Of a stretch of 64,000 nucleotides of DNA, positions 3,254 through 56,349 are shown piece after piece. The DNA comes from an uncultured Muribaculaceae bacterium (lineage in GTDB: Bacteria > Pseudomonadota > Alphaproteobacteria > Rs-D84): positions 257,222 through 321,221 of the forward strand of contig OZ246409.1 of NCBI GenBank assembly GCA_965231035.1, in the 5' to 3' direction. Each line of letters begins with the position of its first letter. Position 1 is the first letter of the stretch. The position numbers were made by a program, and so were the translations under genes. The notes under the pieces were generated by a model. It searched no databases. It was not told where the DNA came from and saw nothing but the letters and a program-made list of their open reading frames with translations.

Positions 3254-6200
3254 ATGAAGAAAATTACACTGCTTTTTGCTGTTTGCTTTGCGTTGCTTGG
3301 GATGCAGAAGGTTTTTGCTGATGACAGTACAGACGCTGCACGTGCTGCAACACGAGGAACAGCGACTGTGGTTGTTTCTTCACACCAAAAATCCGAAGAT
3401 TATAATAGTTCTACAGAAACAACTTCTTTGCCCTCGTCTGCTTCAAGGTCTGTTGTTGGTGGCGTTCAAAAAAGCGACTCTTCCCGTGATAGAGCTGTAA
3501 CAAATCGTGATAATTCTATTTCTGATAAATCCAGAACAAGTCAAACAAATCCTGTCACCGTCCCAAGAAGTGCAAGTGTTCAACAGCGAACAGCCAAAAT
3601 TTCTGAAAGATCCGCTGTCAGCCGTTCTGGAATAAATCAAACAAGTAATGTTACAGTTCGCAGTTCACTGGCTGCTCGCAGTGCGTTGAAAACACAATCC
3701 CGTGGAAATATTTCTGCACGTGCAGCGACAATGGATAATGCTCCAAAACAACCTTTACCAGATACAAAATCAACAAAAACAGATAATTCAAAATCATCTT
3801 CTGTTGGTTATAAAAAATGTCGCGAAGTTTATTACGGTTGTATGGATGAATTTTGTGCAAACAAAGACACCCAACTTAAAAGATGCGCTTGTTCATCCAG
3901 AATTCACGACTTTGACTCTGTTAAAAAGAATATGTCCAATGTCGAAGATAAAATTTTAGATTTCAATCAGCGATTAGTCAGTGTGAATCTTGATAAAGAA
4001 GATGCGGCTGCAATATCCAAAGAAACCGAAGGTGAAAAAGCTTATCAACAAACTGATAAATCAGATTCAAAAAGTATTTTGGACGAAATTTCAAAAAAAT
4101 TAAAATCCAGCACAACAGATACAGATTATAACAAAAACCTTTCTGCAATATCGCTTTCGTTGGACACAGATTCGGCATTCGACAGCATAGATTCATCTTT
4201 GGGCGCATCCACAACATCCAAAGAAGGAACAGATCTTTACGATGCCGCGATTCCAGTTTGTCGCGAAATGGCGGCCGAGGTTTGTGATTCAGATGGTGCA
4301 GCAATCGCAGAAAGTGGTTACCAGATGGCAATCGAACAAGATTGTAATACTGTTGCCAAGGCTTATGAAACCCTGCAAGACCAAGCACTGACCAAGGTTC
4401 GTGAAGGAAGCGCATTACTGGATATGTCCAGATTGGATGTTCATCAAAAAGAAAATGCTGATGACATTCTTACCTGCAAAAAGAAAATGCTGACAATGAT
4501 TACAGACAGTTCTGTATGCGGTAAAAATTTAATCGAGTGTCTGGATATTTCTGGAAGATATATTGATCCTTCTACTGGCGAGGCGTTCTTGACTGAAAAT
4601 TTAATTAATATGGAAAAACTTATCACCAGACCATCAGGCAACCAGAAATGGGTCGAAGTTTCAGGAAATTCACAATTCATAACTTACTTGAATTCTAAAA
4701 AGAAATATTTGGAATCATCTATGGAAAGCTGTAAGGACATTGCTGACACTGTTTGGGATGATTTCGTCGAAGATGCGCTGGCACAAATAAAATTGGCCCA
4801 AGAAAAAAAGTTAGAAGACATGCGTCAAAGCTGTACTTCGCTTACTACACAGTGTTTAGCCGATACATCAAAATCAATTTCTGATTTTGACGCGCGCGCG
4901 CTTTCTACTTTTGGTGTAACCGCAGACAAAACAGTTAATGAAATGTGTGCTGGAATAAAAACCGCCTGCACTGCTTTACTGGAATCAACTGGTGGCGATT
5001 CGGATTGGGTCGGCGGTATGAGTGAAATTCAAACAGATAAAACATACGACACACTTATTCAGACATGCCGCGAAGTTGGCAAGGCTTGCATTATCCAAAC
5101 CTGCAAATCTGTTTCAGGAAACTTTGGATTGTGCGAAAGCGTTGATAAATCAGTTAACAGAAAATCCATTATTAATCGTGCTGCTTGTTGGTCTGACGTA
5201 ATTAAATGCGTGGCTAATGCTGGCACCAGTTCTATTGACTCGATAATGAAAAAGTTTTCCAAGACCCCCAGTTCCAGTGGCGGAAACTTTTACACAGAAA
5301 ATTATGGTGTGCAACCAACAGTAAGTAATTCTACAAGTGGCGCTGGATGTGATCCTACTTCATCAACAACCCCTCAAAATTGTATTTATGATATTTGCAC
5401 CGAGTGTGGTCAGTCTGGTCAGCCAGATTGTGCGACTTGCAGATTGGCTGAAAAAATATGGGGCAACTGCGAGTTTATACCAACAAAAACATTAGATATT
5501 GTTCCACAAAACAAAATCAAGGCGACAATTTCCAGCACCGAAACATTGCTGTCTTGGTTTGATACGAACACTGGAACAACCGATTCTGCAGAAAGCTGTC
5601 GTGATACATCATGCGGTGCCGGATTCAGGGCATTTACAACAGATGGGGTAACAACATGTTCAAAGGCTTCTGACTTTTCGTCTGACAATTTACTTTGCCC
5701 AACAAAGCAATTCTTGGTATCCCAACCTGCTTGGAAGAACTGTTGTTCTACAGAAGAATATGATGATTTTGGAAATTGTTGTCAAGATACACCAATTACA
5801 GTTTCAGGGATATCAATCTGCAGAGAAACTTCCGATATCAATGTTTTCCCTGTTGCCTCGTTTACACTCAGCAGTGACAGTAGTGTTTACAAGGCCGGGA
5901 CAAATATCATGGTTTGTGTTGGTGGGACAATAGATGTTACAACCCCCGAAACTGCTTGGCCATCAGGAAGGAATGTTAAATGTAATGGTGGACATTTTGT
6001 TATTATCAATACCACTTATGGAACATATGTCAGCCCTTATTTCAACCTTGACGATATTGGTAATCCAACAACGACGACGAATCAACATCCAACCTACCCA
6101 AGCAATTATTATTCTTTGGATTATGATGCAGCTACAAACACAAGTATAAATTGCATATATAACTTCGAAAGTAATACTTGGAATTCCTCTACAGGAAGTG

Positions 6201-6900: not shown

Positions 6901-6987
6901 TTATTAAAAACACTAAAAAATTAAATCTGATGCTTGCATCAGATTTTTTTGTTGCTTAAAATAACAAAACTTCTTAAAATTCAAATT

Positions 6988-7956
6988 ATGATTAAAAAGA
7001 TTTTTTTGATTTTTGTTTTATTATTATCTGGTTCGAACGCCTTGGCAGCCGATGAGTGCTCTATATCAAATGCCACAAGTGGTTGTCTTACTGGCAAATA
7101 TTGTCTATATGATTCAACAGGAAACAGTTGTATGCCATGCCCTACTGCATATCCAAATTCATTAGTAAGTAATAATAATGAACAAACTGATTGTTATGCT
7201 TGTGCGACCAGAACCATTGCAAATGGAACTTGGGCGCCCGTCAGTCCTATATATTATCCAACAACACCAACAACATGTACCTATAACTCTGAGAATATTG
7301 CATGTACTTATATGAATTATCCTGTTCCGGATTCAACCGAGACATATGGATACAGATGTGCATTTATGATAATATTAGACGATTCCACCGGTTCCGGTGG
7401 CAGTGGAACAATATATGAAGTTTCTGGTGTAAAATATTTGAGCTCATCCGGAAATCAAATTGAAAATGTCGCAAAACCAATAAAAAGCAACAGCGTTTTT
7501 ACTGGGTATTATTCAAGTGGGAGTTCAATTGCCCAGATACCTGACAGTGGCATTTTACCAGGCAATACATATTTTGCTACCTCGACAACGCTTTTTGCAC
7601 ATTTTTCAACTTGTTCTGGGACTGGCGAACAAGGAACAATTACAAGTTCTGTCAGTGATAACACCTGTTATTATTTTATAACATGTAATGCAGGATACGA
7701 AAATACAACGAATTATAACCTTGCCACCAAAACAACGAACAGCTCTTTGTCTTGCACGCCTTGTTCTGCGGGATACTATTGCCCCGGGGGTGAACATCAA
7801 GCATGTCCTAAGGGTACAACCAGCAGTGGGGGTACAACCGCTACATCAACTGCCGCCTGCCACATGCAGGGTGGGGAAAATGGAACAAGATTTTGTGATT
7901 CTAATGGATGTTTCTATTTGCCAGATACCGCAACAATAACATCTAACTTACTATAA
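6988..7956 (+). CDS. Secreted cysteine-rich protein with ephrin-receptor-like/furin-like C-x-P-C-x-x-G-Y-Y repeats
   Basis: The internal start MIKKIFLIFVLLLSGSNALAA is a signal peptide. Motifs are CTPCSAGYYCPGGEHQACPKGT, CNAGYENTTNYNLA and SCMPCPTAYPNS. It resembles the protein at 456-725. Confidence 0.55.
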   Translation: MIKKIFLIFVLLLSGSNALAADECSISNATSGCLTGKYCLYDSTGNSCMPCPTAYPNSLVSNNNEQTDCYACATRTIANGTWAPVSPIYYPTTPTTCTYNSENIACTYMNYPVPDSTETYGYRCAFMIILDDSTGSGGSGTIYEVSGVKYLSSSGNQIENVAKPIKSNSVFTGYYSSGSSIAQIPDSGILPGNTYFATSTTLFAHFSTCSGTGEQGTITSSVSDNTCYYFITCNAGYENTTNYNLATKTTNSSLSCTPCSAGYYCPGGEHQACPKGTTSSGGTTATSTAACHMQGGENGTRFCDSNGCFYLPDTATITSNLL

Positions 7957-16400: not shown

Positions 16401-16568
16401 TTTATTTCCTTTGGTTTAGTCAGCCGATGTTAATATAACACCAGCAGGAACACCCTTATTCTAGACAAATATTTGATAAAATCAAGCAAATAATCCCTAT
16501 TGACTTATCGATTGTATTTTTACTATCATTTACAAAAGGCAGAGAGACTTAAAAAACGAGAGATTTTA

Positions 16569-20962: not shown

Positions 20963-23464
20963 TTACATAACGATATCTTCACATTTTGCTTCGGATGTTT
21001 CAGTCTTACAGCTGGTGTTTCTATTGTTATGGAACCAGCTTTTGCTGCCTGTTGTTTTGCAACTTTCTGTGATTGTTGTTGTGCAAATATGACAATTTCT
21101 GGTTTCACGACTGAATATTGCACTGACCTGTTTTGTCATTCCACCGCCACTTAATTTTGCACCACCCAAATATCCACCATTGCTGAATGTCACACCACCA
21201 GCATGCATTACACCAGCCCCGCCTTTCATCAAATCTTCGGTTGTTAAACCAGATCCGACTTCGTAACTGATTGCATATGGTGGAGTCAAAGGAGTGCTGG
21301 CATTAACATCACCCAAACCACCTGCCCCACCGTTTTCTGCAATCTTTTGACACATGTATTGTGCCAAATCTGCAGAAGCATTTTTGGTTGCAGATGATAT
21401 TTCTTTATTCAATTTTGTATTATAATTATCTTGAGCTTTACGCAATGCAGCAACAGCAATTTGCATTTTAACCTGGTTCAGCAATTTTGGAAAACGTGCT
21501 GTGGTGACAGAACCGTCCTTACCATTTATCTGTGACAAATCACGTCCACTGACACAATATTGAATCTTAGGATCTTGTTCTATCATTTCAATCGTGCGAT
21601 TAATAGTGCCAGAAATATTATTCAGTTCTTCTTCAACAGAAGACATTATTCCAGCAGCGTTTGGAATACTTGTATTATTTGATTTAACTTTTACCAAATA
21701 ATCTTGGATACCAATTTGTCCAGGTTCTAACTTTGTTCCATCATCCAAAGTTTTACCACTGGAATCACCCATTTGTATACTGCCAAATGAAATCATTCCT
21801 GTTACACGATATACATCACCATCTTTTTGAGAACGAATTGAACCCGTTCCAATTGTGTCATCGGCTGCGAATTTATTACAATCTGTGGTGCTGCCACAAA
21901 CCTCGGTCATTTTTTCATCAACCAGATTCTCGCAATTTTCCAATTCAGCATTATCAATATTCAAATACAATCCCATCAACATTGAATCCAAATCATCCAT
22001 TGAAAATGCTGGATTATTTGCTTTGCAAACAACCAATTTATCCAATGGGCAAATATCTTTTATGTAATTGTAATCCATACCGATACAATTGCTGAAATCT
22101 TTGCCGCATCTTTCATCGGATGTAAAGCAATCTTTGACTTCTTGGGTACAAGCATCTACACGCATAGCAGCCAACTTGTCAGTTACATATCCCCATATCA
22201 TTGGTTCCATTCTTTCACAAGTATCAATTTGAACCTTGCAGAAACTGCGTGCCATATCTGGTCTGGACAAGCAAGAATCCATTGTTGCTGTCCCTTTACC
22301 AACTATATCGTCTTTACATGCTTTTTGAATACAGCTGGAAATATCAGTTAAACAAGATTGACGCATTTTTGATTCTGCATTTTGCTCGGCAAGTTTTATT
22401 GTTGGTGCGGCTTCACGTAAAAAATCGGGCCAAACATTGTCACGCACAACAACACATTGATCCAAAACTTTTTCACAAATATTGCGTTTTGCTTCCAAAA
22501 TTTCCATCGTAGAATCAGTTATGTCAAATTTAGATATAACATCTACTTTGGTACCAGCAGTACTGACGGCCTTGTTATTCTGCATATTTTCCGAAGCAAT
22601 CGTAGAAACGCAATTTGCCCAATCTTTGCCACATGCGTCATCAGATTGCATACATTTTTTAAATTCAACCATACATGTTCCACGATCATACTTGTTTGCG
22701 GAATCAAAACTGCTTTTTAACGCCGCACGAACATCAGATTGTGCACTGGTCAAAATTTTGTCTGCATCAGCCTTTTTTGATGCAACATCATTTGCAAATG
22801 CATTACAGTCAGAAACAATTTGTCTTGAATACATTTGTTGCAAGAACACAACATCTTTTGTACAAGAATCCGGCATCTTGGAAAGACAAAGATCATTCGC
22901 ACCGGTATAAAGAGAGTTTCCAGTTTTATTGGCCAAATTATCAACTTCTTCTTCGAAAACATCTTGATCATCAGTTGAAGAATTAGATTCAAAAATAGCC
23001 ATCAAATCTTTTTTCTTCTTTTCCTTGGTCTGTTCTGTTGATAATTCATCTACTGATATAACATTACCTTTTTCATCATATTCACGGGCACCATTAAAGA
23101 TAATATCAGCCTGTGCCCCAGCCTTGATTTTTTCAACTTGAACTGTTTTCAAATTATCTGCATTTTCCAATTGCTTTTTTATATCAGCCAATTGTTTTTC
23201 ATATTTTGCATTTTCATCACTGCACGAACAAGTTCCACCATTAGTATTATCAACATTACAAAACTGATCCATACATCCGTAATAAGTATCGTAACATTCT
23301 TGTGAATATAAACCAGTCGCCGCAACCTTAGCACGAACACTTGTTCCGCTTTGTATGACAGATTGCCCTTTGCTGGAACGTGTTGCCACAGCAGATTCAG
23401 CTGTAAAATGCACCAAGCAAAACACAGATGTCAACAATCCAAAGCTTATAATTTTACGCATCAT
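20963..23464 (-). CDS. Large secreted cysteine-rich protein, family member 2; cotranscribed downstream of member 3
   Basis: Signal peptide; CYDTYYGCMDQFCNVDNTNGGTCSCSDE; CGKDWANC and CGKDFSNCIGMDYNYIKDICPLDKLVVC modules; Gly-rich C-terminus ending CEDIVM. It is closely similar to 53572-56349. Confidence 0.7.
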   Translation of the reverse strand: MMRKIISFGLLTSVFCLVHFTAESAVATRSSKGQSVIQSGTSVRAKVAATGLYSQECYDTYYGCMDQFCNVDNTNGGTCSCSDENAKYEKQLADIKKQLENADNLKTVQVEKIKAGAQADIIFNGAREYDEKGNVISVDELSTEQTKEKKKKDLMAIFESNSSTDDQDVFEEEVDNLANKTGNSLYTGANDLCLSKMPDSCTKDVVFLQQMYSRQIVSDCNAFANDVASKKADADKILTSAQSDVRAALKSSFDSANKYDRGTCMVEFKKCMQSDDACGKDWANCVSTIASENMQNNKAVSTAGTKVDVISKFDITDSTMEILEAKRNICEKVLDQCVVVRDNVWPDFLREAAPTIKLAEQNAESKMRQSCLTDISSCIQKACKDDIVGKGTATMDSCLSRPDMARSFCKVQIDTCERMEPMIWGYVTDKLAAMRVDACTQEVKDCFTSDERCGKDFSNCIGMDYNYIKDICPLDKLVVCKANNPAFSMDDLDSMLMGLYLNIDNAELENCENLVDEKMTEVCGSTTDCNKFAADDTIGTGSIRSQKDGDVYRVTGMISFGSIQMGDSSGKTLDDGTKLEPGQIGIQDYLVKVKSNNTSIPNAAGIMSSVEEELNNISGTINRTIEMIEQDPKIQYCVSGRDLSQINGKDGSVTTARFPKLLNQVKMQIAVAALRKAQDNYNTKLNKEISSATKNASADLAQYMCQKIAENGGAGGLGDVNASTPLTPPYAISYEVGSGLTTEDLMKGGAGVMHAGGVTFSNGGYLGGAKLSGGGMTKQVSAIFSRETRNCHICTTTITESCKTTGSKSWFHNNRNTSCKTETSEAKCEDIVM

Positions 23465-23487: not shown

Positions 23488-25629
23488 TTACATATTAACG
23501 TCTTCACAAGAATCAACTTCTTGGCAAAATTCTTGAGTACCGCCAGATGCACGACCGCCAAAGAATCCACCAATCGCACCGACTGCACCACCAATTGCTG
23601 TTCCCCACCCAGGCATAACCATTGTACCAGCCGCAGCACCAGCTGCCAATCCACCCCCAGCAGCCTTTAATCCAGATGTATTTTTACTTTCGCCACCTTT
23701 TTCACAAACTTGTTGTGTGCGACATACATGACAATTTCTTAAAGACGGTTCAAAAGATACACTTTTTATATAACTGTAATTTTTCTTTTTTTCGTCTGGC
23801 GTTTCTACCTTATAAGTCGAGGTACAATTTTTTTCTGCTTCTTCTAGGCTTTGAGCACGAGATAATTCTGCAATTTTTGATTCCAATTGTTTCACAGCTC
23901 TGTTTTCTGCACCAATTTCAGCAATTAACTTTGCGGTACTGAACACAGTATCACCCATTGATTTACGACCAGTTGGCTTTTTACCGTCTTTGCAAGCAGT
24001 AACATTTTTATCATTTTCAAAATCAGTAAAGAAATTTTTAACTGCTGCATCCGCATTATCTATAACTTGCTGACGCAAGGCAACCATACCTTCTTCGGTA
24101 TCTGGAACAGCATTCAATGCTGTTATTCTTGCATCATTTGGCAAACAGGACATATCTGTTCCACAAACCTTACCAAGTTTTTCTGCAAAATAATTTGTAC
24201 AACTTTGCAACATTTGATAATCCATCTGCAACATAGCCGCCTGGAGAATTATATTAAATTGTGTTTCTTTCTTACATGATGGGAACATAGACTGTGGACA
24301 CAGCGCAGAAATTTCCGAAGATTTTTTACCTAAACATTCAGGAGCATCATAATTTTTACCACATCTATCCTGTAAACATTTATCTATATCGTTTTCACAA
24401 AATTGAGTTTGTAAAAATCCAAGCTTATCACTGACAGAATTTTTTATACCCGGAATTATATCATTACATTCATCAATTATTGGACATACGCCCGCAGCAA
24501 CATTAATATCTGTCAAACAGGCAGAATCAGTGCCTGTTGAACAACCATCTTCCAGACAAGCCTGAATTTTTGCAAAACAAGTTGCACGGCGATTTTTATC
24601 CGCATATTTTGCAGCATCCTCTAAAACAGTCTTTGATTCAGCAGTCCAGTCTTGTATAACATAATCTTTGACCGCTGTGCATTGGTCCAAAACATTTTCA
24701 CAAGCATTAGCACGACGAGCCAATAATTCTTCGTCCAGACAATTTTCAAAATCAGACCCGCATCCGCCCTTGTCTGATATACAAGATTTATAAGCCAGCA
24801 AACATTCGCCACGATTATATTTGTTTGTTGTATCCAACATTTCCAATCTTGCCTTGCGGACAGCAGCCTCGGCAGTTGTTTTATTCGCACTGGCATCACG
24901 TTTTTGATCTGTCAGATAATTATTAAAATTTTTACAATCTTGAACAATTACACGCGAATAAAGCGTTTCTTCCATCCCAGCAGAATCACCGCAAGCCGCT
25001 AATTTTGAAGCACAATTATCAGTTGCAATTGCATATAAATTGTTACCAATATCATAATCTGAATTCAAAGCATCAGTGTCATCACTTGTTGTGCCAGAAC
25101 TAATCCAATCCGCAAGACTTAAACCAGAAGCACGTGATGAACTTTTAGCCTTGTCACTTTCACCAAATACTAATTTTGCCTTGGCACCAAGTTTTTCGCG
25201 TTCAACACCTTCGGTATACATTTTTTCCGCGTCATTTTGTATTTTTTGAATTTCTTGTATTATCGGTTTTGCCTGATTTATATTGTCAGAACAAGCACAA
25301 CGGCTGCCTTCGGATTCATCTAATAAACAAAATTCATCCATACATTGACGATAATTATCTCGACAACTGTTTGCAGAAGAAGATGTTGTTGTCACACTTG
25401 TTTTTGTGTCTGATGATTTGCTGACAGTTGTTGTTACAGGTTCTGTAACAGTCGTTTGTGTATCTGAATCTGTAGTATTTTCAACAGATGTCGAAGCCCT
25501 GGTCATAACCTGAGATCGGGCCGCCGCCTGGGAAATACGATTAACCCCAACCCTTGCATCACTTCTATCTGCAGCAAAAACAACACTTGGCAGAAAACAA
25601 ACTGCGGTTAAAAATATTTTTAATTTCAT
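23488..25629 (-). CDS. Large secreted cysteine-rich protein, family member 3
   Basis: Start taken at MKLKIFLTAVCFLPSVVFA (signal peptide); S/T-rich region; CRDNYRQCMDEFCLLDESEGSRCACSDN; CGSDFENC; Gly/Ala-rich hydrophobic C-terminus ending CEDVNM. Confidence 0.7.
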   Translation of the reverse strand: MKLKIFLTAVCFLPSVVFAADRSDARVGVNRISQAAARSQVMTRASTSVENTTDSDTQTTVTEPVTTTVSKSSDTKTSVTTTSSSANSCRDNYRQCMDEFCLLDESEGSRCACSDNINQAKPIIQEIQKIQNDAEKMYTEGVEREKLGAKAKLVFGESDKAKSSSRASGLSLADWISSGTTSDDTDALNSDYDIGNNLYAIATDNCASKLAACGDSAGMEETLYSRVIVQDCKNFNNYLTDQKRDASANKTTAEAAVRKARLEMLDTTNKYNRGECLLAYKSCISDKGGCGSDFENCLDEELLARRANACENVLDQCTAVKDYVIQDWTAESKTVLEDAAKYADKNRRATCFAKIQACLEDGCSTGTDSACLTDINVAAGVCPIIDECNDIIPGIKNSVSDKLGFLQTQFCENDIDKCLQDRCGKNYDAPECLGKKSSEISALCPQSMFPSCKKETQFNIILQAAMLQMDYQMLQSCTNYFAEKLGKVCGTDMSCLPNDARITALNAVPDTEEGMVALRQQVIDNADAAVKNFFTDFENDKNVTACKDGKKPTGRKSMGDTVFSTAKLIAEIGAENRAVKQLESKIAELSRAQSLEEAEKNCTSTYKVETPDEKKKNYSYIKSVSFEPSLRNCHVCRTQQVCEKGGESKNTSGLKAAGGGLAAGAAAGTMVMPGWGTAIGGAVGAIGGFFGGRASGGTQEFCQEVDSCEDVNM

Positions 25630-25774: not shown

Positions 25775-26023
25775 ATGGCAAAAGATGATGTAATTGTATT
25801 AAATGGTACAGTTGAAGATAAATTGCCGAACACGATGTTCCGCATAAAATTAGAAAATGGACACGATGTTCTGGCAACTGTTTGTGGAAAAATGCGTAAA
25901 GCACGCATTTGGGTTAACGTTGGTGAAAAGGTCCGTGTTGAAATGACCCCTTATGACTTAGACAAGGGTCGTATTACATTTGTAGAAAGAACTGCAAAAC
26001 CTGCCCCAACTGCACAACAATAA
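25775..26023 (+). CDS. infA: Translation initiation factor IF-1
   Basis: [42 protein letters not shown]. The start is in the track frame at the internal Met. Confidence 0.85.
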
Positions 26024-26025
26024 AT

Positions 26026-26053
26026 TTATCCCGCGAACCGCGGGATTTTTTTG
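26026..26053 (+). terminator. Intrinsic terminator
   Basis: ATCCCGCGaacCGCGGGATttttttt. Confidence 0.5.
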
Positions 26054-26112: not shown

Positions 26113-28851
26113 ATGAAAAAGATTTGGTCTTTTGCTTTATGTTGCATTATCAGCATCAGTTTTGCTGACGCTTCGCAACGCACAGAAACTTCTATAAATC
26201 GTGAACCAGTTTCAACTTCACAACGTACCGCAACTGTTCAAAAAGAATCTGCAAAAGTTAATTCCAGAACTGGTTCTGTACGTGAGGTTTCGGTCAGAAA
26301 CAGTTCTAATACATTGTCACGATCAGCTGTTACAACCCCCAGAAAAAACACTACAATTTCTGCAAGGTCGGCAACAACCACAACAAAAGCAAGAACAACT
26401 GTTACCAGAAACGTCCCGGTTACAAAAAACAATCTGATATCCCGAACAACCACAACAACATCAGATTCAAAAACCTTTGGCAGTGGATATAACGCTTGCA
26501 GGGACTCTTATTTCACCTGTATGGATCAATTTTGTGCAAAACAAGATGAAACATATCAACGCTGTGCTTGTTCATCCAGATTGGAAGAAATAAAAAGCAA
26601 AGAACGCGCACTTTCACAAACCAAGCAGCAATTACAAGATTTCAAGGATTTAAATATTGATTCAATATCCAAGACCAGGAACGAGGTCAAGGCTATGGTG
26701 AATGCCAGTGCTGGTGAATCCGCAACTGATAAATCAACTGATACTTCCAGCAGTTCGGAAAAATTATCAGGTATCAGTTCTGTATTAAGCAAGACAAAAT
26801 CCGAATCTTTATCCACCCAAGGTAAATTAGATATTGCCGGTAATATAAATGCTATTTGGTCAACCACAGATTTGACTGCTGGTGCAGATATAATGAATTT
26901 AACCGGGGAAAAACTTTACAATGCTGTTCACGCCCAATGCGTTTCTTTTGCATCTGATTCTTGTGATTCTAAATCAACATTAAATATGGTTGTTACTGCC
27001 TATGGAATGTATATTGAAAATGATTGCACAACACTTTCTAATTCTTTGGCAAAACAAACTACTAACGCATCCGGAAGTATACGTGAAACAGAACAAGCAA
27101 TGAACCAAGCCAGATTAGAAAATTATGATTCACATAATTCTACATCTATTAATGACTGTATATCAAACGTTCGCAAAGATATAACTGCTGACTCTGCTTG
27201 TGGTAAAGATTATATTCACTGTTTGGACATAACTGGAAAATATCTTAACAGCGATACAGGAGAGCCTATATACAGCTCGGACTTTTATCAGTTAGAATTA
27301 CAAACATCTTTATCAGGGGATATTTTAACAAACCAGACAAATAGGTTGCTTGTAAATGAGTTAAATAAAAAGAAAGAGTTCGTAACAAACGATTTATCCA
27401 AGTGTAGCGATTTGTCATCTGATGTGTGGGATGAATTTATGCGTCAAGCAATTACCGAAATATATCAAGGCCAGCAAGAAAGAATCCGAGAAGTTAAAAA
27501 CGAATGTATTGATGTTGTTAACGATTGCTATGACACACAAAGCAAATCTTTGAAAGATTTTAGTAATGTAAAAGAACAGCTTTTGTTGGGATCAAGATTA
27601 GAATTATCTGAAGAAATGTGCAAAGAAAAACTTAATGCATGCAGCAATCTTTACGGTGGTGGTGAACCAGGACTAGAAGAACTTGTTACAACCATGCATA
27701 ATATTACAGATCAGAAAATTGCTAAAGATTGCAAAACAACACTGGAAGATTATGCAAAAAGTATTTGTGCTGTACCATCCAGCGACATTGTCCATGGATA
27801 CCCTTTTGCATGTCGCACATACGCACCAGGCGAACAAAAGTATGCCTCTATTTCGTCGTGTAATCTTGTATTTTCGACCGGAACTTTGAATGTTATTGAT
27901 ACCGGGTATACTGCTGGTGTTGATAATGGAACTGGAACTGTTAATTTCATTTGCAGAGATAACACAATTTATACAAATTGCAGTTATGGATATTACATGG
28001 CTTATTTAACCAATGGTTTTTACATTTATGACGGAACTCCAAAACCTGGTAATAAATGTCTAAAATGTCCTACACTTGCATCTAATGGAACATCAGCGGT
28101 TAGTTACAATTGTAATGGTGGAACAGAAGCTCCTGCACAGATAACAAATGAAAATACAAGTAATGTTACATGTGGTGATGATTATGTAGGAAGTTTGTAT
28201 CAAAAAATTGTTAGATATGCATTACAGACCTGCACCAGACCTTCGGATTCTACAGAAGTTTTACCTTATGCAATTTTAGCCGATGTGAATGTTGTTATGG
28301 ATTCAATAAAATCAGCAATGGGCACGCAGTTGTCCGATGAATGTGAACGTCTTGGTGGTATTTGGGTTAATACTCCAGGAAATAATGTATCTTCTGATAA
28401 AATATTAACATCATTTTATACCGAGACCAGTTCTAATAAAAAATGGGGGTATTGTTCTGTTACACCAGCCATAGTATGCCCAAAATTTTCCACTTCGGAT
28501 TCCAGTTGTGTATCTACTGATTCATCGGGTGTATCTGGTGGTTGTGCAATAGCAAAATGCAGATGTGTTTCCGGAACATATTCAAATGGGTCTGGAGGAT
28601 GTACGCCGGGTACATACAGTTGCCAAGGAGCCTGTGGTACCCAAAGAACGACATTTACTGCAAGTTCACAAACACCTGTTACAACAGCATGGACGGGCGG
28701 TGATAATTATAAGATACGTAGAAAATATAGTGTATTATGTTCCAATTGGATAACTGTAAGTGGGGGTACTTGCACTTCTGCTAATTTCACAGCTTATTAC
28801 ACTTCGTGTTTAAACGATAATAATTTCACTACGCTAGTAACTTGCGATTAG
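26113..28851 (+). CDS. Large secreted cysteine-rich protein, family member 4
   Basis: Signal peptide; S/T/R-rich region; CRDSYFTCMDQFCAKQDETYQRCACSSR; ACGKDYIHCLDITGKYLNSDTGEPIY; Cys-rich C-terminal third. Confidence 0.7.
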   Translation: MKKIWSFALCCIISISFADASQRTETSINREPVSTSQRTATVQKESAKVNSRTGSVREVSVRNSSNTLSRSAVTTPRKNTTISARSATTTTKARTTVTRNVPVTKNNLISRTTTTTSDSKTFGSGYNACRDSYFTCMDQFCAKQDETYQRCACSSRLEEIKSKERALSQTKQQLQDFKDLNIDSISKTRNEVKAMVNASAGESATDKSTDTSSSSEKLSGISSVLSKTKSESLSTQGKLDIAGNINAIWSTTDLTAGADIMNLTGEKLYNAVHAQCVSFASDSCDSKSTLNMVVTAYGMYIENDCTTLSNSLAKQTTNASGSIRETEQAMNQARLENYDSHNSTSINDCISNVRKDITADSACGKDYIHCLDITGKYLNSDTGEPIYSSDFYQLELQTSLSGDILTNQTNRLLVNELNKKKEFVTNDLSKCSDLSSDVWDEFMRQAITEIYQGQQERIREVKNECIDVVNDCYDTQSKSLKDFSNVKEQLLLGSRLELSEEMCKEKLNACSNLYGGGEPGLEELVTTMHNITDQKIAKDCKTTLEDYAKSICAVPSSDIVHGYPFACRTYAPGEQKYASISSCNLVFSTGTLNVIDTGYTAGVDNGTGTVNFICRDNTIYTNCSYGYYMAYLTNGFYIYDGTPKPGNKCLKCPTLASNGTSAVSYNCNGGTEAPAQITNENTSNVTCGDDYVGSLYQKIVRYALQTCTRPSDSTEVLPYAILADVNVVMDSIKSAMGTQLSDECERLGGIWVNTPGNNVSSDKILTSFYTETSSNKKWGYCSVTPAIVCPKFSTSDSSCVSTDSSGVSGGCAIAKCRCVSGTYSNGSGGCTPGTYSCQGACGTQRTTFTASSQTPVTTAWTGGDNYKIRRKYSVLCSNWITVSGGTCTSANFTAYYTSCLNDNNFTTLVTCD

Positions 28852-28890: not shown

Positions 28891-29622
28891 ATGAAAAAAT
28901 TATTTTATGCACCTTTATTTTCGCTAATTTTTTCTGCACACGCGGGTGCTTTATCTGCCCCAAGTGCAACCCCTTGGTGGCTGCAACCAACTATTTGTAA
29001 ACCTAATACTACAAATTGTTATTCAAATATGGGCGCCGGGTATGATTCTGGTATGTGGGATGCAACAAGCAATTGCTGGGGATTGAAAAAAATTTGTGCC
29101 GAAGCTACAACTTCTACATCAGATGAAGATTATGTCGAAATGGGACGTGTTACAATTGCAAATGGTACAGGTATAAATTCTGACTTTGATACTACTGTTT
29201 TAAATGGTGATTGTTTTGGTGCAAGAAAAACAACTGCCAGCGGAACACTTGCTTCGGTTAGTGGAAGTTATGTTAATGTTTGGTGTAATGGGATTTTGGA
29301 CAACCCAGGGGATACCGTTTCAAATGGTGAAATTCAAATTGGAACCCAACCAACATGCAAAGATTTGGCGGCAAATGGTTGGGTTGCTGTTTTGAATCAA
29401 CGCTGTTATGGGAAATATTATGATCCTGAAAAATACTATATTGAGTGTGAAGGAACAAATCTGTTACCAAAAAGGATTATTGTTCTGAATGGATCACAAA
29501 AGTTTACTGGAACTGGTTCTGCACCAAGTGCAAATTATCCTGTTGATGCAAATGCGGCGGATACTTTATTTGATAAAATGTTTAATGTTTCAAATAATAA
29601 AAAATCAGACCATTTTAAGTAA
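28891..29622 (+). CDS. Hypothetical secreted protein that contains cysteines
   Basis: Signal peptide MKKLFYAPLFSLIFSAHAGA; paired cysteines throughout; no recognised domain. Confidence 0.45.
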   Translation: MKKLFYAPLFSLIFSAHAGALSAPSATPWWLQPTICKPNTTNCYSNMGAGYDSGMWDATSNCWGLKKICAEATTSTSDEDYVEMGRVTIANGTGINSDFDTTVLNGDCFGARKTTASGTLASVSGSYVNVWCNGILDNPGDTVSNGEIQIGTQPTCKDLAANGWVAVLNQRCYGKYYDPEKYYIECEGTNLLPKRIIVLNGSQKFTGTGSAPSANYPVDANAADTLFDKMFNVSNNKKSDHFK

Positions 29623-41373: not shown

Positions 41374-41408
41374 AAAATCTCGACAATGCCGAGATTTTTT
41401 ATTTTTTT
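41374..41408. terminator. Bidirectional intrinsic terminator
   Basis: aaaaaATCTCGacaatgcCGAGATtttttatttttt. Confidence 0.5.
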
Positions 41409-45144: not shown

Positions 45145-45209
45145 GAAAACTCTCTCTGCTAGAGAAAATTTTAACATAAAAATGTCAAATCTGTCCAGCG
45201 GAAAAAATG

Positions 45210-46497: not shown

Positions 46498-46500
46498 CAA

Positions 46501-48063: not shown

Positions 48064-48066
48064 AAA

Positions 48067-48663: not shown

Positions 48664-48675
48664 AGCGGCAATAAT

Positions 48676-50251: not shown

Positions 50252-52300
50252 TTATTGGCATGCGCCATAAGATACTGCAACTGGATGATTATCTACGCAA
50301 GTGCTGCCAGAAACAACACATGCTGTATTTACCAATTGTGTATTGGTTGAATTAACCGGTTTATAATTCAGCTGTGCTGCTGCGCACTGGTTCAAATCTT
50401 TCAGTGTTGCACAAGCATTCTTCCACGAAGTACAATCTGTCGCAGTTGCTGTTGGCATAATTGTATCTGGCAAACGCAGGTTCCATTTGACATAGAAGTC
50501 TTTTAACGAACCAATGCTATAAGATTTACCAAAGTCAACCTTTTGCAATCCGTCACCAACACGACAGTTAATGTTGTTCTTTTCAACAAAAGATGTGATT
50601 GCTGTTGCCAATCCACCTGCGGCGGCACCAGCACCGGCACCAATTGCAGTTGACGCCAACATGTTTGAATCCTCACCCTGCAATATTGTCAACTGATTCA
50701 TAACATTTCCCAGTTCTTTTACTTGTTTTCCAAATTCTTCACTATCAACGCAATTATTGTTATTCCCCGAACAATATGGTTTTATACCATTCTTTTTTGC
50801 AAGATTCAAGTTACTGAATGTCATGGCACATTTATCTGTCGATGTTATAACAGTATTATCATTAGAAAGTTTTTTTACCGTTATTTTAATACTTCTGGTT
50901 CCATCATCAGTCAGGTATTTTACCTTATCTTCTGTCAAACTATTATTCATTACTTCACGATCTTTATTATCCTTTGAAACTTTGTCAAGCATTGCTTTAC
51001 TAGTAGTTCCATCGAAAAGTATATCTTTTGCTGTTACATCTATATCTTCGGTATTAGTAATATTTATTGCTGAATTTGTTGTACCAGTTGTGCATGATTT
51101 CAATGCAACTTTTGCTGCTTGGTAATCACTGTAAAGTGTAACTATGGCTTCGCACTGATCGCCAATATATTCATTTACAATAATCTGGCTTTCAGAATCC
51201 AAGAATTGATTTAAAACAGCGACCTTGCCAGTTGCACGCAATTCCTTATCCAATTCTTTTACCTGATCTTTGTCTTTGCAGTTAAAGTTACGTTGACCAT
51301 GGCCGGCCAATGCACCGATACCTGCACCAACCAATGTACCACCACCAACACCAACGACTGATGTGGTCTTGGTCTTGGTCATCAAACCAAACCCAAACAT
51401 ATCTTTACCACAGTTAAAGCTGCTGCCTGCTGATTTCCAAACTTCGGCCGGTTGATCATTTCCAGCGGCACCAAATAACCAACTGTTTTTGATTTGTGAA
51501 TCTTTGTTGTACGCTGCAACACGAACCAAACATTCACCCTTGACCGCATCCCATCTGGCATAATGTCCACGTTGTGCATCAACAGTACCATTATTATTAA
51601 CCCTTACACCCTGAGGCATATCTTTGGTCAAAGATCCACCAGACTGACTGTTATAAGCACCAACAGTTTGGTTATATTCTTCTGTGACTTTTCCACCATT
51701 CGAAATCGCTGCAAAAGATGAACCATAAGTATTTTTATCCAACAACCAACATGTATTTTCTGCTTGGTTTGGTGTTAATCCTGTTTTGCGCAGAACAAAA
51801 GAATAATATTCAGGTTGAATCTTGCGAGAGTTATAGTCCCACCAAAAATCAGAAGAAGTAGCATAAACATTTTTGCAATTCTTACGAACGTCGCTGATAC
51901 ATTTATCCACCTGGGCATAACACAGACTCATTCCATTAAAGATAGAATTACGCAAATCTTCGTTGAACAAATCGTTTAACCCACCAGGAAGTGCACCGTT
52001 GTTAATACAAGAAGTAACATCGTTGATGCAATTTTCAACTGTATATTCAGAATTTGCAACACCACCATCTGGACACTTGGAAACTGTTGTTCCTGTATTC
52101 GTTGTAGTATTACCAGTCGCATTGCCAGGAAGAATTGACATTGTTGGCATACGTTGCTGACCTGCTGTATAGGCTGCCCCACGAACCGGTGCAACATTAT
52201 AACCCGCACGCCCTGTATCCGCTGCACCTGCAGAACCTAGAACAAAAACTGTACTTGCAGACACAATGGAAAACCCGAATTTCTTTAATAAATTGTGCAT
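50252..52300 (-). CDS. Large exported protein with Cys pairs and two Gly/Ala-zipper segments
   Basis: Signal peptide MHNLLKKFGFSIVSASTVFVLGSAGA; VGVGGGTLVGAGIGALAGHG; AIGAGAGAAAGGLATAITS. Confidence 0.45.
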   Translation of the reverse strand: MHNLLKKFGFSIVSASTVFVLGSAGAADTGRAGYNVAPVRGAAYTAGQQRMPTMSILPGNATGNTTTNTGTTVSKCPDGGVANSEYTVENCINDVTSCINNGALPGGLNDLFNEDLRNSIFNGMSLCYAQVDKCISDVRKNCKNVYATSSDFWWDYNSRKIQPEYYSFVLRKTGLTPNQAENTCWLLDKNTYGSSFAAISNGGKVTEEYNQTVGAYNSQSGGSLTKDMPQGVRVNNNGTVDAQRGHYARWDAVKGECLVRVAAYNKDSQIKNSWLFGAAGNDQPAEVWKSAGSSFNCGKDMFGFGLMTKTKTTSVVGVGGGTLVGAGIGALAGHGQRNFNCKDKDQVKELDKELRATGKVAVLNQFLDSESQIIVNEYIGDQCEAIVTLYSDYQAAKVALKSCTTGTTNSAINITNTEDIDVTAKDILFDGTTSKAMLDKVSKDNKDREVMNNSLTEDKVKYLTDDGTRSIKITVKKLSNDNTVITSTDKCAMTFSNLNLAKKNGIKPYCSGNNNNCVDSEEFGKQVKELGNVMNQLTILQGEDSNMLASTAIGAGAGAAAGGLATAITSFVEKNNINCRVGDGLQKVDFGKSYSIGSLKDFYVKWNLRLPDTIMPTATATDCTSWKNACATLKDLNQCAAAQLNYKPVNSTNTQLVNTACVVSGSTCVDNHPVAVSYGACQ

Positions 52301-52421: not shown

Positions 52422-52450
52422 TTGACAAATAAACAAAATTCGTCTATTAT
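52422..52450 (+). promoter_or_regulatory. Sigma-70-type promoter TTGACA-N17-TATTAT with the ATG only about 7 nt downstream; possibly leaderless
   Basis: The start of the track ORF coincides with the TTGACA box. Confidence 0.35.
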
Positions 52451-52457
52451 TAAATTG

Positions 52458-53384
52458 ATGAAAAAGCTGTCTGAGTTTTTAAAGACAAATGTGCTGGCAG
52501 TAAAGTGGACCTTTTGGTATTTTGCTGCGTTTTATGCTGTCCTGTCCTTTTTATTTGGATTTAATATATTTTCTGCAAATGATTGGATTATGATTACTCA
52601 TTCCAGATTGCGCGGACTACCTGGTTTTACTTTTGGAATTATTATGTTTTCAGCAATTCCTTTGTACATTGCGACTACTGCAACAATTATAAAAACGAAA
52701 AAACCTTTATTTAATTTCTTTACTGCAAAAAAAGAAGAACCTAAAAAAATAGCCGAAGAAAAAAAAGAAGTTTTCAAAGAAATTATTATTCAATTTCCAG
52801 AAAGAATGCCGACTGAATTACGTGGTGCGTTTATTCGTGCAAGACAACAAGCTGGTGTCAGACCAGAATCTGCCTTTGATATGAAAGACATAAAATCACA
52901 ACCAAAAGTGGCAATCGAAGAAAAAAAAGAAGAAACACCAGAATTTGGTTTACCATTGCCTGATAATTTTGATTTTACATCTGAAAACGAATCGCCTGCC
53001 GAATTACAGTTCAGTTCAACACCTGTGTTCAAAGAAATTAATTTTGGAGATTTTAATACAAAGAAAGATAGCAAATCACCATTGATTGAACATCTTGAAA
53101 GCAAAGGATATGAAATTGCTTTTGATGGTAATGTTGTAATCGCAAATAATTTTGCAATTGCGGTTCACGACGATTCGGATTTTTGGATTGCTGATAAAGA
53201 CAATTGGTTTGCAGCAGGCAAACAAAAAGAATCCCCCATATCCGAAGTTTTAATGGTATCTGAAAAACACGGTGTAAATGCGATGATTTATTTGGCGGAA
53301 AAAAATATTATGGATTTGGACAAACGAATTGCAGAATGGGAATTCAAAGGAGTCAAGGTTATTAAAAACCTGACTGAAATTTAA
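52458..53384 (+). CDS. Hypothetical membrane protein (3 N-terminal TM helices plus a cytoplasmic or periplasmic domain)
   Basis: MKKLSEFLKTNVLAVKWTFWYFAAFYAVLSFLFGF...; K/E-rich linker; C-terminal globular part. Confidence 0.4.
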   Translation: MKKLSEFLKTNVLAVKWTFWYFAAFYAVLSFLFGFNIFSANDWIMITHSRLRGLPGFTFGIIMFSAIPLYIATTATIIKTKKPLFNFFTAKKEEPKKIAEEKKEVFKEIIIQFPERMPTELRGAFIRARQQAGVRPESAFDMKDIKSQPKVAIEEKKEETPEFGLPLPDNFDFTSENESPAELQFSSTPVFKEINFGDFNTKKDSKSPLIEHLESKGYEIAFDGNVVIANNFAIAVHDDSDFWIADKDNWFAAGKQKESPISEVLMVSEKHGVNAMIYLAEKNIMDLDKRIAEWEFKGVKVIKNLTEI

Positions 53385-53571: not shown

Positions 53572-56349
53572 TTACATCTGTACACCATTTGTAACTGTTG
53601 TTGGATCTTTGAATTTAGTACAAAAAACACCTTCAAATTTTTTCGTCACTCTTTTTCTTCCACCACCTATATGCAATATACCACCTCCACCTTTGCATCC
53701 ACCACCACCAAAAAAACTTAACCCACCATAACTACAAGTATTAGATTTTGAATAAACATCTTTAAATGTATCACACATAGTCGTAACTGTAGTTATATTG
53801 CAAGTATTAGATGAAGATGAATATACAGAAGTTAAAGAAACCTTTCCAATCATATTACCCTTAGTATCCGTTTGAGTCCATTCAGAATGACCACTGGATG
53901 CTACAGAAATTATATCCGACATCTTTGCACCACTTATAATATATTTCATTGAGTAAATATCATTACCAGACACACCTTTACTTGATGTATCATCAAACAA
54001 ATCAGCATAAGATGTAGCTTCATATGCTGTGCAATTCCCGTCAGAATCATAAGTTTTACAAGATTTAGGTTCTGATGCCATAGCTGCACACATTGCTGTT
54101 TTTAAATCATCATTTTGATTTTCTAATGCTTCTGATACCATTTTATCATACTTTTTATTATAGTTTTTATTTGCTTTTTCCAAGCCAGAATTCATTATAG
54201 CCAATATAGAAGAATCTAATAAATTTGGATATCTTGCCGTAGATGTTGTTGATACTGCATTTGTTCCATCACCACGAATTTGTGTCATATCACGACCCTC
54301 AATACACATCTTTATTTTTGCATCCTGAGACAAGACAGCTATCTTTTGATTCATCTTATTTGCCGTGGATTGTAAAGATGAAACAACGCGTGAGGTCAAA
54401 GAATCTGAAGATAATAAATGATTTTTGTAATCATTTATATCAATCTCGTACTTACCAAATTTTACATCTGTATCACTACTTTTTGTCCTTTCAATTTTCA
54501 CATTTCCATAAGAAACTAATCCTTCAATTACATAATCTCCATTATTATCCTTGTAACTGGATAAACTTTCTGTACCAATAGAATCATCATCATCGAATGC
54601 TGTGCAATTATCAGTATCACCACATATTTCTATCATTTTTTCAGACACAATTTTTTGACATTTATCCAGCAGCGAATTATCTATATTAAGGTAAATTCCT
54701 TGTACTATATTATCTATATCATTAATATTATTTAAAACGCCATCTTTTTGACATCCTACCAGTTTATCAATTGGACATAGTTTCTTTATATCACTCAAAT
54801 CTAAACCTATACAATTATGAAAATCTTCGCCGCAAGTATTTTCATTAGTGAAACATTCTTTAACTTCGGTTGTACAAGAATCAACACGCATTGCTGATAA
54901 TTTTGCATAGACATAATCCAGAATCAAAGGTTCTGCTGAAACACAAGGATCGATTTGCACTTTGCATAAAGAACGAACTGTTTCTGGACGTGATAAACAC
55001 ATATCATATGAACCATCCGGATCATTTGGATCAATTGTATCTTTACATGCTTTTTGGAAACATGAGGATATATTAGAAATACAATTTGTCCGTAAATTAG
55101 ATTCAGCCAATAGTTCAGCTGTTTTTAAAGTTGGTGCAACATCACGCAAAAATGAATTCCAAACCTGGTCTTTTACTGCAACACAAGAATTTGTTATATT
55201 TTCACACATTGGTTTTTTTGATTCCAGCGCATCCATAGTGGATGCAGCAACTGAAATTTTTGTATTTGATCCGGTTATATCAACCATCTTCATAGAAGAC
55301 TTAGAACTGCTGGACATCTTGGCATTTTCAGCCGCAGCAATTCCAACACAGCCTGTAAAATCACTTTTGCAACCTGCTGTATCAGTCATGCATTTTTCAA
55401 AAGCCAAAGTACACTGACCTAGGTCATATTTATTTGCTGTACGTAATGAATCCAAAGCGGCATCACGCAGAGCCTTTTGTGCAGTTGCTAATTTCTGTGT
55501 GCTGGAATTTTTTTGCTTAGTTAAATCATTTTCATACGCCGCACAATCAGATTTTATATTCTGAGAATAACCAAGTTGTATCATTGCCAAATCTTCTGAA
55601 CATTCTGGAATTTGTGCTGAACACAATTCAGCAACAGAACTATACAAGTCATTACCTGTTTTACCTTCAACAGGGCTTACCTCTCTTTGTGCAAATATAT
55701 CTTGATCCATTGTATCAGAATCCGTCTGATTCCACTGACTTAAATCCAACGTTTTTTTCTGGGTTACATTACTAGTTGTTAAACTATTTGCTGTATTGTT
55801 TGCAGATGCGATTACTTTATCTGCATCAGAACCCATTTCAATTTTTTCAACACCCTCGGTTGCCATTTTATAACTTTGAGCATCCAAAGCCTGAATCTGA
55901 ACCTGAACCTTATCCAGCTCAGCCTTGCGATCACTGCATAAACAACGACCGCCACTGGTGTTTTCAATCATACAAAAAGAATCCATACATCCATAATATT
56001 TTTGCTTACAAGCTTCATCCACTATTATATTCTTGTTCACACCAGAAATTGCAGTACCTGAATTTATAACTTTTTGCATAGTCCCAGCACGTGCAGAAAC
56101 AACTGGCGCGGACATTGGAGTTGCCGCAGATCTGGCAGATATTGTTCGAACGTTTGAAGATGTTGCACTGGGCATTACAGCTGAACGTGCAGAAGTTGGT
56201 CTGACAGCAGCACGTGCCGACACGGGTGTTTGTGCAGTGCTTTCAGATGGTTGTGATACAGATTGACCACGCCTTTGCACAGGAACTTCAGCATTTGCAC
56301 ACACAACAAAGGTTGCCATAAAAATAGAAAAAATTGCAATTTTTCTCAT
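53572..56349 (-). CDS. Large secreted cysteine-rich protein, family member 5 (close paralog of 20963-23464)
   Basis: Signal peptide MRKIAIFSIFMATFVVCANA; SARSAVMPSATSSNVRTISARSAATP; CKQKYYGCMDSFCMIENTSGGRCLCSDR; CGEDFHNCIGLDLSDIKKLCPIDKLVGC; Gly-rich C-terminus. Confidence 0.7.
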   Translation of the reverse strand: MRKIAIFSIFMATFVVCANAEVPVQRRGQSVSQPSESTAQTPVSARAAVRPTSARSAVMPSATSSNVRTISARSAATPMSAPVVSARAGTMQKVINSGTAISGVNKNIIVDEACKQKYYGCMDSFCMIENTSGGRCLCSDRKAELDKVQVQIQALDAQSYKMATEGVEKIEMGSDADKVIASANNTANSLTTSNVTQKKTLDLSQWNQTDSDTMDQDIFAQREVSPVEGKTGNDLYSSVAELCSAQIPECSEDLAMIQLGYSQNIKSDCAAYENDLTKQKNSSTQKLATAQKALRDAALDSLRTANKYDLGQCTLAFEKCMTDTAGCKSDFTGCVGIAAAENAKMSSSSKSSMKMVDITGSNTKISVAASTMDALESKKPMCENITNSCVAVKDQVWNSFLRDVAPTLKTAELLAESNLRTNCISNISSCFQKACKDTIDPNDPDGSYDMCLSRPETVRSLCKVQIDPCVSAEPLILDYVYAKLSAMRVDSCTTEVKECFTNENTCGEDFHNCIGLDLSDIKKLCPIDKLVGCQKDGVLNNINDIDNIVQGIYLNIDNSLLDKCQKIVSEKMIEICGDTDNCTAFDDDDSIGTESLSSYKDNNGDYVIEGLVSYGNVKIERTKSSDTDVKFGKYEIDINDYKNHLLSSDSLTSRVVSSLQSTANKMNQKIAVLSQDAKIKMCIEGRDMTQIRGDGTNAVSTTSTARYPNLLDSSILAIMNSGLEKANKNYNKKYDKMVSEALENQNDDLKTAMCAAMASEPKSCKTYDSDGNCTAYEATSYADLFDDTSSKGVSGNDIYSMKYIISGAKMSDIISVASSGHSEWTQTDTKGNMIGKVSLTSVYSSSSNTCNITTVTTMCDTFKDVYSKSNTCSYGGLSFFGGGGCKGGGGILHIGGGRKRVTKKFEGVFCTKFKDPTTVTNGVQM

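Follow-up and report, generated by a model that had tools for sequence, protein, structure and literature searches.

Large cysteine-rich proteins with predicted signal peptides form an order-wide family in Rs-D84 gut Alphaproteobacteria and are candidates for a cell-envelope or cell-contact structure

Five long open reading frames (ORFs) within a stretch of 64,000 nucleotides (nt) from an uncultured alphaproteobacterium of the order Rs-D84 (contig OZ246409.1, positions 257,222 to 321,221; hereafter the window) encode large cysteine (Cys)-rich proteins, and the locus raises the question of what this family is and what it may do for the cell. The initial annotation had regarded the five genes as a lineage-specific expansion of surface or host-interaction proteins. 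Our analysis points to an old family, conserved across the order, whose function is most likely that of a cell-envelope or cell-contact structure, as judged from sequence. The order Rs-D84 includes Candidatus Enterousia, whose genomes (about 0.75–1.0 Mb) lack the tricarboxylic acid cycle, respiration, and standard transporters and for which a partner-dependent lifestyle has been proposed (PMC12306168). The five genes are as follows.

Member A: 3254..6262, plus strand, 1002 amino acids (aa).
Member B: 20963..23464, minus strand, 833 aa.
Member C: 23488..25629, minus strand, 713 aa.
Member D: 26113..28851, plus strand, 912 aa.
Member E: 53572..56349, minus strand, 925 aa.

All five ORFs are present at these coordinates with uninterrupted translation, and every peptide quoted from them in the initial annotation was found exactly in the translated ORFs. 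Their combined length of 13,170 nt agrees with the ~13 kb reported earlier and amounts to roughly 1.5% of the longest assembled contig of this genome (~0.85 Mb). Two members have a longer alternative start, GTG 3152 in A and TTG 25689 in C. The GTG start of A overlaps tRNA-Leu (3115–3199); the ATG starts at 3254 (A) and 25629 (C) lead straight into signal-peptide-like N-termini, and the length of C counted from ATG 25629 agrees with the lengths of its orthologs. The signal-peptide-like sequences at the N-termini are MKKITLLFAVCFALLGMQKVFA in A, MMRKIISFGLLTSVFCLVHFTAES in B, MKLKIFLTAVCFLPSVVFA in C, MKKIWSFALCCIISISFA in D, and MRKIAIFSIFMATFVVCANA in E.

Sequence comparison identifies A–E as true paralogs of one family. 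All 10 of the 10 pairwise BLASTP comparisons were significant, ranging from B–E (40% identity, E = 1e-166) through A–D (28% identity, 7e-52) to the weakest pair, A–C (5e-10). The mutual identity of the five copies is 17–40%, and two subgroups could be distinguished, B/E/C and A/D. A proper MAFFT alignment of A–E contained 37 invariant columns, mostly Cys, and the shared architecture described previously is real; the number of Cys columns that stay invariant among 142 family members is 20. A search of all ORFs in the window with a five-member profile detected no sixth family member. Three other Cys-rich secreted ORFs (6934–7956, 28891–29622, and 50252–52300) were considered as hidden members and discarded, because none has significant similarity to A–E in BLAST or hidden Markov model (HMM) searches.

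In each member, a signal peptide is followed by a disordered linker, a Cys block with the motif CMD, a long helix, and a helical core of ~500 aa with about 17–20 invariant Cys. The linker comprises ~30–165 aa, of which S/T/A/R/V/N/Q account for 70–82%, and (S/A)-A-R-(S/A)-A motifs recur in the linkers of A, D, and E. The N-terminal block had been described as an invariant Y-Y-G-C-M-D-x-F-C; C-x3-Y-x2-C-M-D-x-F-C is indeed invariant, but the YYG part is replaced by YRQ in C and YFT in D. The repeated C-G-x-D-F-x-N-C element also exists, but its unit is more accurately a four-Cys module, C-x6-C-x4/6-C-x7-9-C, exemplified in B by CMVEFKKCMQSDDACGKDWANC (C-x6-C-x6-C-x6-C). The CMD block is itself one copy of this module. 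Strict four-Cys matches number 1–4 per protein (in D the CMD block only), and a three-Cys variant, C-x13-C-G-K, occurs once each in A and D.

The even Cys counts reported earlier were not reproduced. The raw counts are odd in every case (43, 37, 37, 43, and 39 for A–E); after removal of the signal peptide, with cleavage as read from the sequence, they are 42, 36, 36, 41, and 38, four of the five being even. Four Cys columns of the shared core are found only in B, C, and E (residues 271, 330, 383, and 398 of B), and this even number would fit the gain or loss of whole disulfides. Taken together, the Sec-type signal peptides and conserved Cys patterns fit the extracytoplasmic, disulfide-bonded fold predicted in the initial annotation.

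The ends of B, C, and E had been read as glycine (Gly)-rich tails. They consist instead of a Gly-rich segment, a small Cys-containing beta module with the common pattern C-x2-C ... C ... C, and a conserved motif at the very end (CEDIVM in B, CEDVNM in C, and GVQM in E). Among the Gly-rich segments, only that of C is clearly hydrophobic: its 40 aa (residues 653–692) are G/A-rich with repeated GxxxG (GWGTAIGGAVGAIGGFFGG), and three of four C-type representatives keep a Gly-rich segment that is GxxxG-rich and hydrophobic. The final residue is Met in 213 of 215 B orthologs, nearly all of which end in C-[EQ]-D-I-x-M; the final motif is C-[EQ]-D-[IV]-N-M in three of the four C-type representatives, and many E-type proteins have a hydrophobic-x-hydrophobic end. 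Conservation does not extend to the C-terminal parts of D and of many E relatives. The positions of these parts are given below.

3254–3319, plus strand: A, signal peptide.
3320–3817, plus strand: A, disordered S/T/A/R-rich linker.
3818–3901, plus strand: A, CMD Cys block.
4475–4540 and 5066–5134, plus strand: A, Cys modules.
From about 5321, plus strand: A, Cys-rich C-terminal region, which aligns poorly with the other members.
About 23393–23464, minus strand: B, signal peptide.
23213–23296, minus strand: B, CMD block.
22610–22675 and 22085–22150, minus strand: B, four-Cys modules.
20966–21139, minus strand: B, C-terminal beta module, ending in CEDIVM (20966–20983).
25573–25629, minus strand: C, signal peptide.
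25282–25365, minus strand: C, CMD block.
24739–24804 and 24334–24399, minus strand: C, modules.
23554–23673, minus strand: C, Gly-zipper-like hydrophobic segment.
23491–23508, minus strand: C, last motif CEDVNM.
26113–26166, plus strand: D, signal peptide.
26167–26496, plus strand: D, disordered linker.
26497–26580, plus strand: D, CMD block.
27157–27222, plus strand: D, Cys module.
28480–28848, plus strand: D, Cys-rich tail, lineage-variable.
56290–56349, minus strand: E, signal peptide.
56011–56289, minus strand: E, linker with SAR(S/A)A repeats.
55927–56010, minus strand: E, CMD block.
55348–55413 and 54811–54876, minus strand: E, four-Cys modules.
53575–53700, minus strand: E, Gly-rich segment and hydrophobic C-terminal end.

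The family has no curated model and no detectable relative among solved structures, as far as profile and model comparisons can tell. No matching family had been recognized originally, and our scans of A–E against Pfam and NCBIfam likewise gave nothing significant, and profile searches of PDB sequences gave nothing. Searches of PHROGs and PADLOC produced no meaningful match, and a phage or defence origin was rejected; the Gly-rich segment of C matched nothing but the Gly-rich parts of phage tape-measure profiles, which is a similarity of composition. Two weak matches over the CMD block were treated as noise: DUF2664 (E 0.03–0.2, D-type proteins only), which is cited only in papers on herpesvirus domain repertoires, and MG280 (E = 6e-4 on one 132-aa segment), which scored below the gathering threshold and was inconsistent between members.

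The AlphaFold2 model of B has a mean predicted local distance difference test score (pLDDT) of 77 and a predicted template modeling score (pTM) of 0.50, and consists mostly of long helices, with beta strands at residues 733–832; its C-terminal beta module (strands at 776–832) is small (about 60 aa). For D the corresponding values are 71 and 0.48; the core (about residues 260–790) reaches a pLDDT of about 90, and residues 17–119 and 788–912 fall below 50. The linkers of both models are also below 50. Structure prediction followed by Foldseek against PDB, a check proposed beforehand, gave best E values of 0.6 (B) and 0.29 (D), and the matches of B to secretins and levivirus coats had E > 0.5. 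Generic helical bundles (designed helical repeats, syntaxin Habc, and spectrin repeats) were matched with Z below 8 and 5–15% identity over a fraction of the 833 residues. Because of these low values and the partial alignment, such matches reflect helical secondary structure, not homology. An oligomeric barrel of trimeric-autotransporter-like or secretin-like type, formed by the four C-terminal strands of B, was not supported, the strands being polar and Thr/Cys-rich. In the C-terminal regions of A–E, no beta-barrel of autotransporter type or other recognized sorting domain was matched in Pfam or NCBIfam. An N-terminal Ala-Asp motif that links outer-membrane proteins to peptidoglycan occurs in Brucella; such a motif was considered here and dropped, because the ADA of D orthologs is more simply read as the AxA site of signal peptidase and is absent from the other members.

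To what extent is the family shared by related organisms? An exhaustive profile search of 1.84 billion representatives yielded 911 clusters (50% identity) at E ≤ 1e-3 and 547 at E ≤ 1e-30, and 575 relatives were found in GTDB species genomes. Exact matches are "hypothetical protein PKJ33_..." entries from an alphaproteobacterial metagenome-assembled genome. The named matches belong to Alphaproteobacteria from gut, rumen, and termites, a "Rickettsiales bacterium" (termite gut), Candidatus Enterousia, and a few evidently mis-binned contigs. Thus, every named match is either an Rs-D84-type gut alphaproteobacterium or an evident mis-binned contig, and the family is lineage-specific, as had been proposed. 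The top 150 representatives fall into the groups E (71), A (30), D (18), B (12), and C (4–5), with a few singletons; by number of clusters at 50% identity, the E group ranks first among them and the A group second.

The genomic context of these groups is also conserved. Member C lies 23 nt upstream of B on the same strand, and B likewise directly follows C in 77 of 80 species loci; the two probably form an operon. Orthologs of B are 58–81% identical across the 80 species loci, and those of D are 53–71% identical over about 84% of the query. The core-gene neighbors named in the initial annotation were confirmed (tRNA-Leu before A, infA between C and D, and rplQ before E), and the same order, [small Cys protein]←D←infA | C→B, is found in two further genera (L084 and L085), with the following gene at its center.

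25775..26023, plus strand: infA (IF-1), between the divergent C–B pair and D; eIF-1a Pfam match, same position in L084 and L085.

Similarly, an E-like gene follows rpoA-rplQ in 43 of the 61 metagenome loci with enough upstream sequence, and the genes downstream of E (52422–53384 and the Cys-rich 50252–52300) are often conserved in such loci as well. Considering the orthogroups and the conserved gene order, we conclude that A–E represent five ancient, order-wide orthogroups rather than a recent expansion in this genome. The idea of recent expansion is contradicted by the low identity of the copies, by the five orthogroups that hold nearly all of the top 150 representatives, and by their order-wide conserved positions.

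Comparison with other proteins of the same organisms revealed different rates of change among the members. Identity to the two other genera is 68–69% for B, 61–64% for C, and 51% for D; the values for PGK, RecO, and the DsbA-like protein are 64–68%, 56%, and 61–65%, and those for ClpX/ClpP and IF-1 are 82–83% and 79–83%, respectively. The most conserved stretch of B comprises residues 250–570. E-like proteins are 35–52% identical in metagenome loci where RpoA is 81–91% identical. These identities suggest that B and C are under strong constraint and that E is fast-evolving; A apparently evolves faster than B and C.

A tentative hypothesis, which we favor while giving it somewhat less than an even chance, is that A–E might build a disulfide-stapled envelope or contact structure, with B and C as an anchored base and with the variable, exposed parts supplied by A, D, and E. 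Each protein would be exported by Sec and its signal peptide, as read from the sequence, cleaved. In the periplasm, the mainly helical core of ~500 aa would be stapled by intramolecular disulfides at the C-x6-C-type four-Cys modules. The shared core might then serve as the common assembly element through which the paralogs form one hetero-oligomeric, envelope-associated structure. A role of B and C as the anchored base would be consistent with their slow evolution, their probable operon, and their shared near-invariant C-E-D-[IV]-x-M end, which may act as a docking or sorting motif; the Gly-zipper-like segment of C might be a membrane anchor. Members A, D, and E may face outward and contact the environment, a partner cell, or the host, because the C-terminal regions of D and E are variable and the A and E groups are the most diversified. 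On this reading, the family would be a structural apparatus of a partner-dependent bacterium, and not a recently expanded antigen family, a toxin, or TraN.

The window also encodes a transmembrane (TM)-anchored DSBA-domain protein, a Pom-family porin, and SurA-like and OmpA-domain proteins, implying that the cell is diderm with an oxidizing periplasm. The presence of a DSBA-domain gene at 13365–14189 was confirmed. Its proximity had been cited as evidence of a link to the family; the gene sits in generally conserved synteny, so that nearness proves nothing, and the idea of a specific partner was not retained.

Several observations weigh against the proposed structure. A Sec signal peptidase I (Sec/SPI) protein in a diderm is periplasmic by default, and the exposure of A, D, and E is therefore a guess. 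No known type of signal for translocation across, or anchoring in, the outer membrane was detected in A–E, and a hydrophobic segment is convincing only in C. Relaxed constraint, instead of exposure, could account for the variability of the D and E tails. The arrangement of domains is uncertain, since pTM is no higher than 0.50 for B and 0.48 for D. Finally, terminator-like hairpins separate infA from D (26028–26046) and rplQ from E (56436–56463); hence, adjacency to tRNA-Leu, infA, or rplQ is not evidence of co-expression or high expression, and co-transcription with these genes was dropped as a proxy for high expression.

Among the alternatives, the view taken in the initial annotation, that A–E are lineage-specific, expanded surface adhesins or host-interaction antigens diversifying under pressure from a host or partner, survives best together with a purely periplasmic role, and we consider each of the two unlikely. 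Signal peptides, large size, and low-complexity linkers would suit adhesins, as would the diversity of E-like proteins (71 of the top 150 clusters; 35–52% identity against 81–91% for RpoA) and the variable C-terminal regions of D and E; further secreted proteins of this genome include one with ankyrin repeats and others rich in Cys. However, the copies are old (17–40% identity), nearly all of the top 150 representatives belong to five groups fixed in position across the order, and the Pfam and NCBIfam scans of A–E showed no adhesin or repeat domain. A fast-evolving, antigen-like role is not supported for all five, as B and C are conserved like the glycolytic enzyme PGK and above RecO; E does diverge quickly, and the A group holds the second rank in cluster number.

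It is about equally improbable that the proteins form a purely periplasmic scaffold, such as a disulfide-stiffened skeleton or spacer, with no surface or contact role. The fast divergence of E and the variable tails of D and E would be unusual for internal scaffolds, and the long disordered N-terminal linkers and the Gly-zipper-like segment of C suggest membrane tethering.

A third possibility is that A–E are TraN-like Cys-rich outer-membrane proteins, which would stabilize cell-cell contact via outer-membrane proteins of another cell; we regard this as very unlikely. It is prompted by a B ortholog of Candidatus Enterousia intestinigallinarum (UniRef100_A0A9D1JWE5, P0049) that bears the name "IncF plasmid conjugative transfer protein TraN." TraN has a signal peptide, at least 20 Cys predicted in intramolecular disulfides, and both conserved parts and a variable region, and its predicted structure is rich in beta strands at the N-terminus and bears a beta-sandwich tip (PMC9246713). 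Members A–E likewise combine Sec export, large size, at least 20 Cys (37–43 here), and conserved and variable regions, and a cell-contact role would suit a partner-dependent bacterium (PMC12306168). A signal peptide together with at least 20 Cys is a generic trait and does not discriminate TraN. The TraN HMMs (Pfam TraN and NCBIfam TraN_Ftype) gave no match to A–E at E ≤ 1, Pfam gave none to ten relatives including P0049 at E ≤ 10, and tblastn of B against 72,556 plasmids found no traN. When family profiles were compared by hhalign with F TraN and with a five-sequence TraN profile, only the signal peptides aligned (probability 3% and 0.2%, respectively). Unlike the beta-rich TraN, the family has a helical core in the AlphaFold2 models, and its genes are chromosomal, comprise five conserved paralogs, and have no tra gene among the scanned neighbors; those neighbors with Pfam matches are housekeeping or envelope genes. 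Membership in the TraN family was therefore rejected by HMM, tblastn, and profile–profile tests, and a loose functional analogy, as a Cys-rich exported protein mediating cell contact, is at most conceivable. The sole functional name given to the family in a public database thus appears to be wrong, an annotation error that could spread.

Least probable of all is that A–E are secreted alpha-helical pore-forming toxins or effectors that draw metabolites out of a partner or host cell: the long bundles of helices with their hydrophobic Gly-rich segments, the lack of standard transporters (PMC12306168), and the listing of the tripartite alpha-pore-forming toxins NheA and SmhA by Foldseek for the D model would fit, but these matches are not significant (E about 8, probability 0.01–0.02), the many structural disulfides and the high conservation of B and C are atypical of toxins, and no secretion-system genes occur among the scanned neighbors.

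In kind, the family resembles exported Cys-rich envelope or contact proteins of reduced-genome bacteria, to which it is unrelated in sequence and predicted fold. The chlamydial proteins OmcB and OmcA, which are thought to stiffen the envelope via disulfides, are likewise exported Cys-rich envelope proteins of reduced-genome, host-associated bacteria. However, the Pfam scan of A–E at E ≤ 1 gave no match to the OmcB/OmcA families, and OmcB is beta-rich whereas A–E are predicted to be helical. Next to tRNA-Leu and member A, and divergent from them, the window contains a gene (1497–3029, minus strand) for a 510-aa outer-membrane protein that matches the Pfam family "Protochlamydia outer membrane protein" (Pom; E = 3e-10) and whose N-terminal region is of low complexity and rich in Q/N/Y. 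In an Enterousia relative, an autotransporter of 777 aa (L085, 1577–3910) that shows a faint Chlam_PMP signal lies near the D–infA–C–B cluster; with the Pom-type porin it gives the envelope a chlamydia-like flavor.

A second comparison concerns twin Cx9C/Cx3C (CHCH-type) domains, in which Cys at fixed spacing on helices can staple a helix-loop-helix by two disulfides. Such proteins are small and reside in the mitochondrial intermembrane space. Both Cys spacing and context differ from those of the C-x6-C-x6-C-x6-C module, whose disulfide pairing is putative. The GxxxG-repeat segment of C also resembles Gly-zipper segments of the Gly-zipper_Omp, YMGG, or Rickettsia 17-kDa antigen type, but the Pfam Gly-zipper models gave no match to C at E ≤ 1, and known Gly-zipper proteins are small lipoproteins, unlike C.

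Other genes of the window also encode secreted or envelope proteins. One of them directly follows D.

28891..29622, plus strand: small secreted protein with 9 Cys, 243 aa, 39 nt after D.

No terminator-like site lies between this gene and D, and the two may be co-transcribed. A counterpart with 50–53% identity also follows D in L084 and L085, and a bidirectional terminator-like hairpin (29630–29659) was observed after the gene. Near E, the ORF 50252–52300 (minus strand) encodes a 682-aa protein that contains 22 Cys in addition to a signal peptide and a Gly-zipper-like segment (VVGVGGGTLVGAGIGALAGHG; weak Pfam match to the YMGG Gly-zipper, E = 0.03); many metagenome loci carry a conserved counterpart close to an E-like gene (36–61% identity). 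Just downstream of A, 6934–7956 (plus strand) encodes a secreted protein of ~320 aa with 20 Cys, CxxC and C-T-P-C-S-A-G-Y-Y-C-P-G-G-type motifs, and no Pfam match.

The protein of ORF 41407–45177 (minus strand, 1256 aa) begins with a hydrophobic leader and contains ankyrin repeats (Ank_4, E = 3e-6), and nothing else in it gave a match; the repeats hint at a possible interaction with a eukaryotic host or protist. The gene pair 16500–17360 and 17387–18604 (both plus strand) encodes a weakly matching MotA/ExbB-like membrane protein (E = 0.0025) and a 405-aa protein that combines a TM segment at the N-terminus with a long coiled coil and, at the C-terminus, an OmpA domain. This pair is conserved in L084 and L085 and could be stator-like or Zor-like; the lineage is reported to lack flagella. 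A tight cluster of four genes (45631–50043, plus strand; 288, 520, 198, and 455 aa) has no Pfam matches, nor do its counterparts in L081, and lies in the strongest positive AT skew of the window (0.14–0.23). Within the ribosomal-protein cluster, an APH-family (aminoglycoside phosphotransferase-like kinase) gene (59012–59881, minus strand) and a 190-aa ORF without assignment (58408–58980, plus strand) are located between rpsK and rpoA, and the 58–60 kb region has the lowest GC content of the window (0.29).

Rs-D84 bacteria occur widely in the guts of humans, livestock, rodents, and termites; with genomes smaller than 1 Mb, they have neither standard transporters nor a complete glycolysis (PMC12306168). 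The order-wide recurrence of all five lineages of the family, together with conservation of B and C at the level of a core enzyme, marks the family as a strong candidate for an envelope or contact structure that defines the lineage. In a bolder form of this idea, which we think rather improbable, the paralogs would assemble into an undescribed disulfide-stapled helical structure with a new fold, anchored by B and C and bearing A, D, and E as fast-evolving contact tips, which would be a defining organelle of Rs-D84 and the physical basis of its proposed dependence on a partner or host. With more than 900 clusters at 50% identity and no Pfam model, the family offers a concrete target for curation and structure determination.

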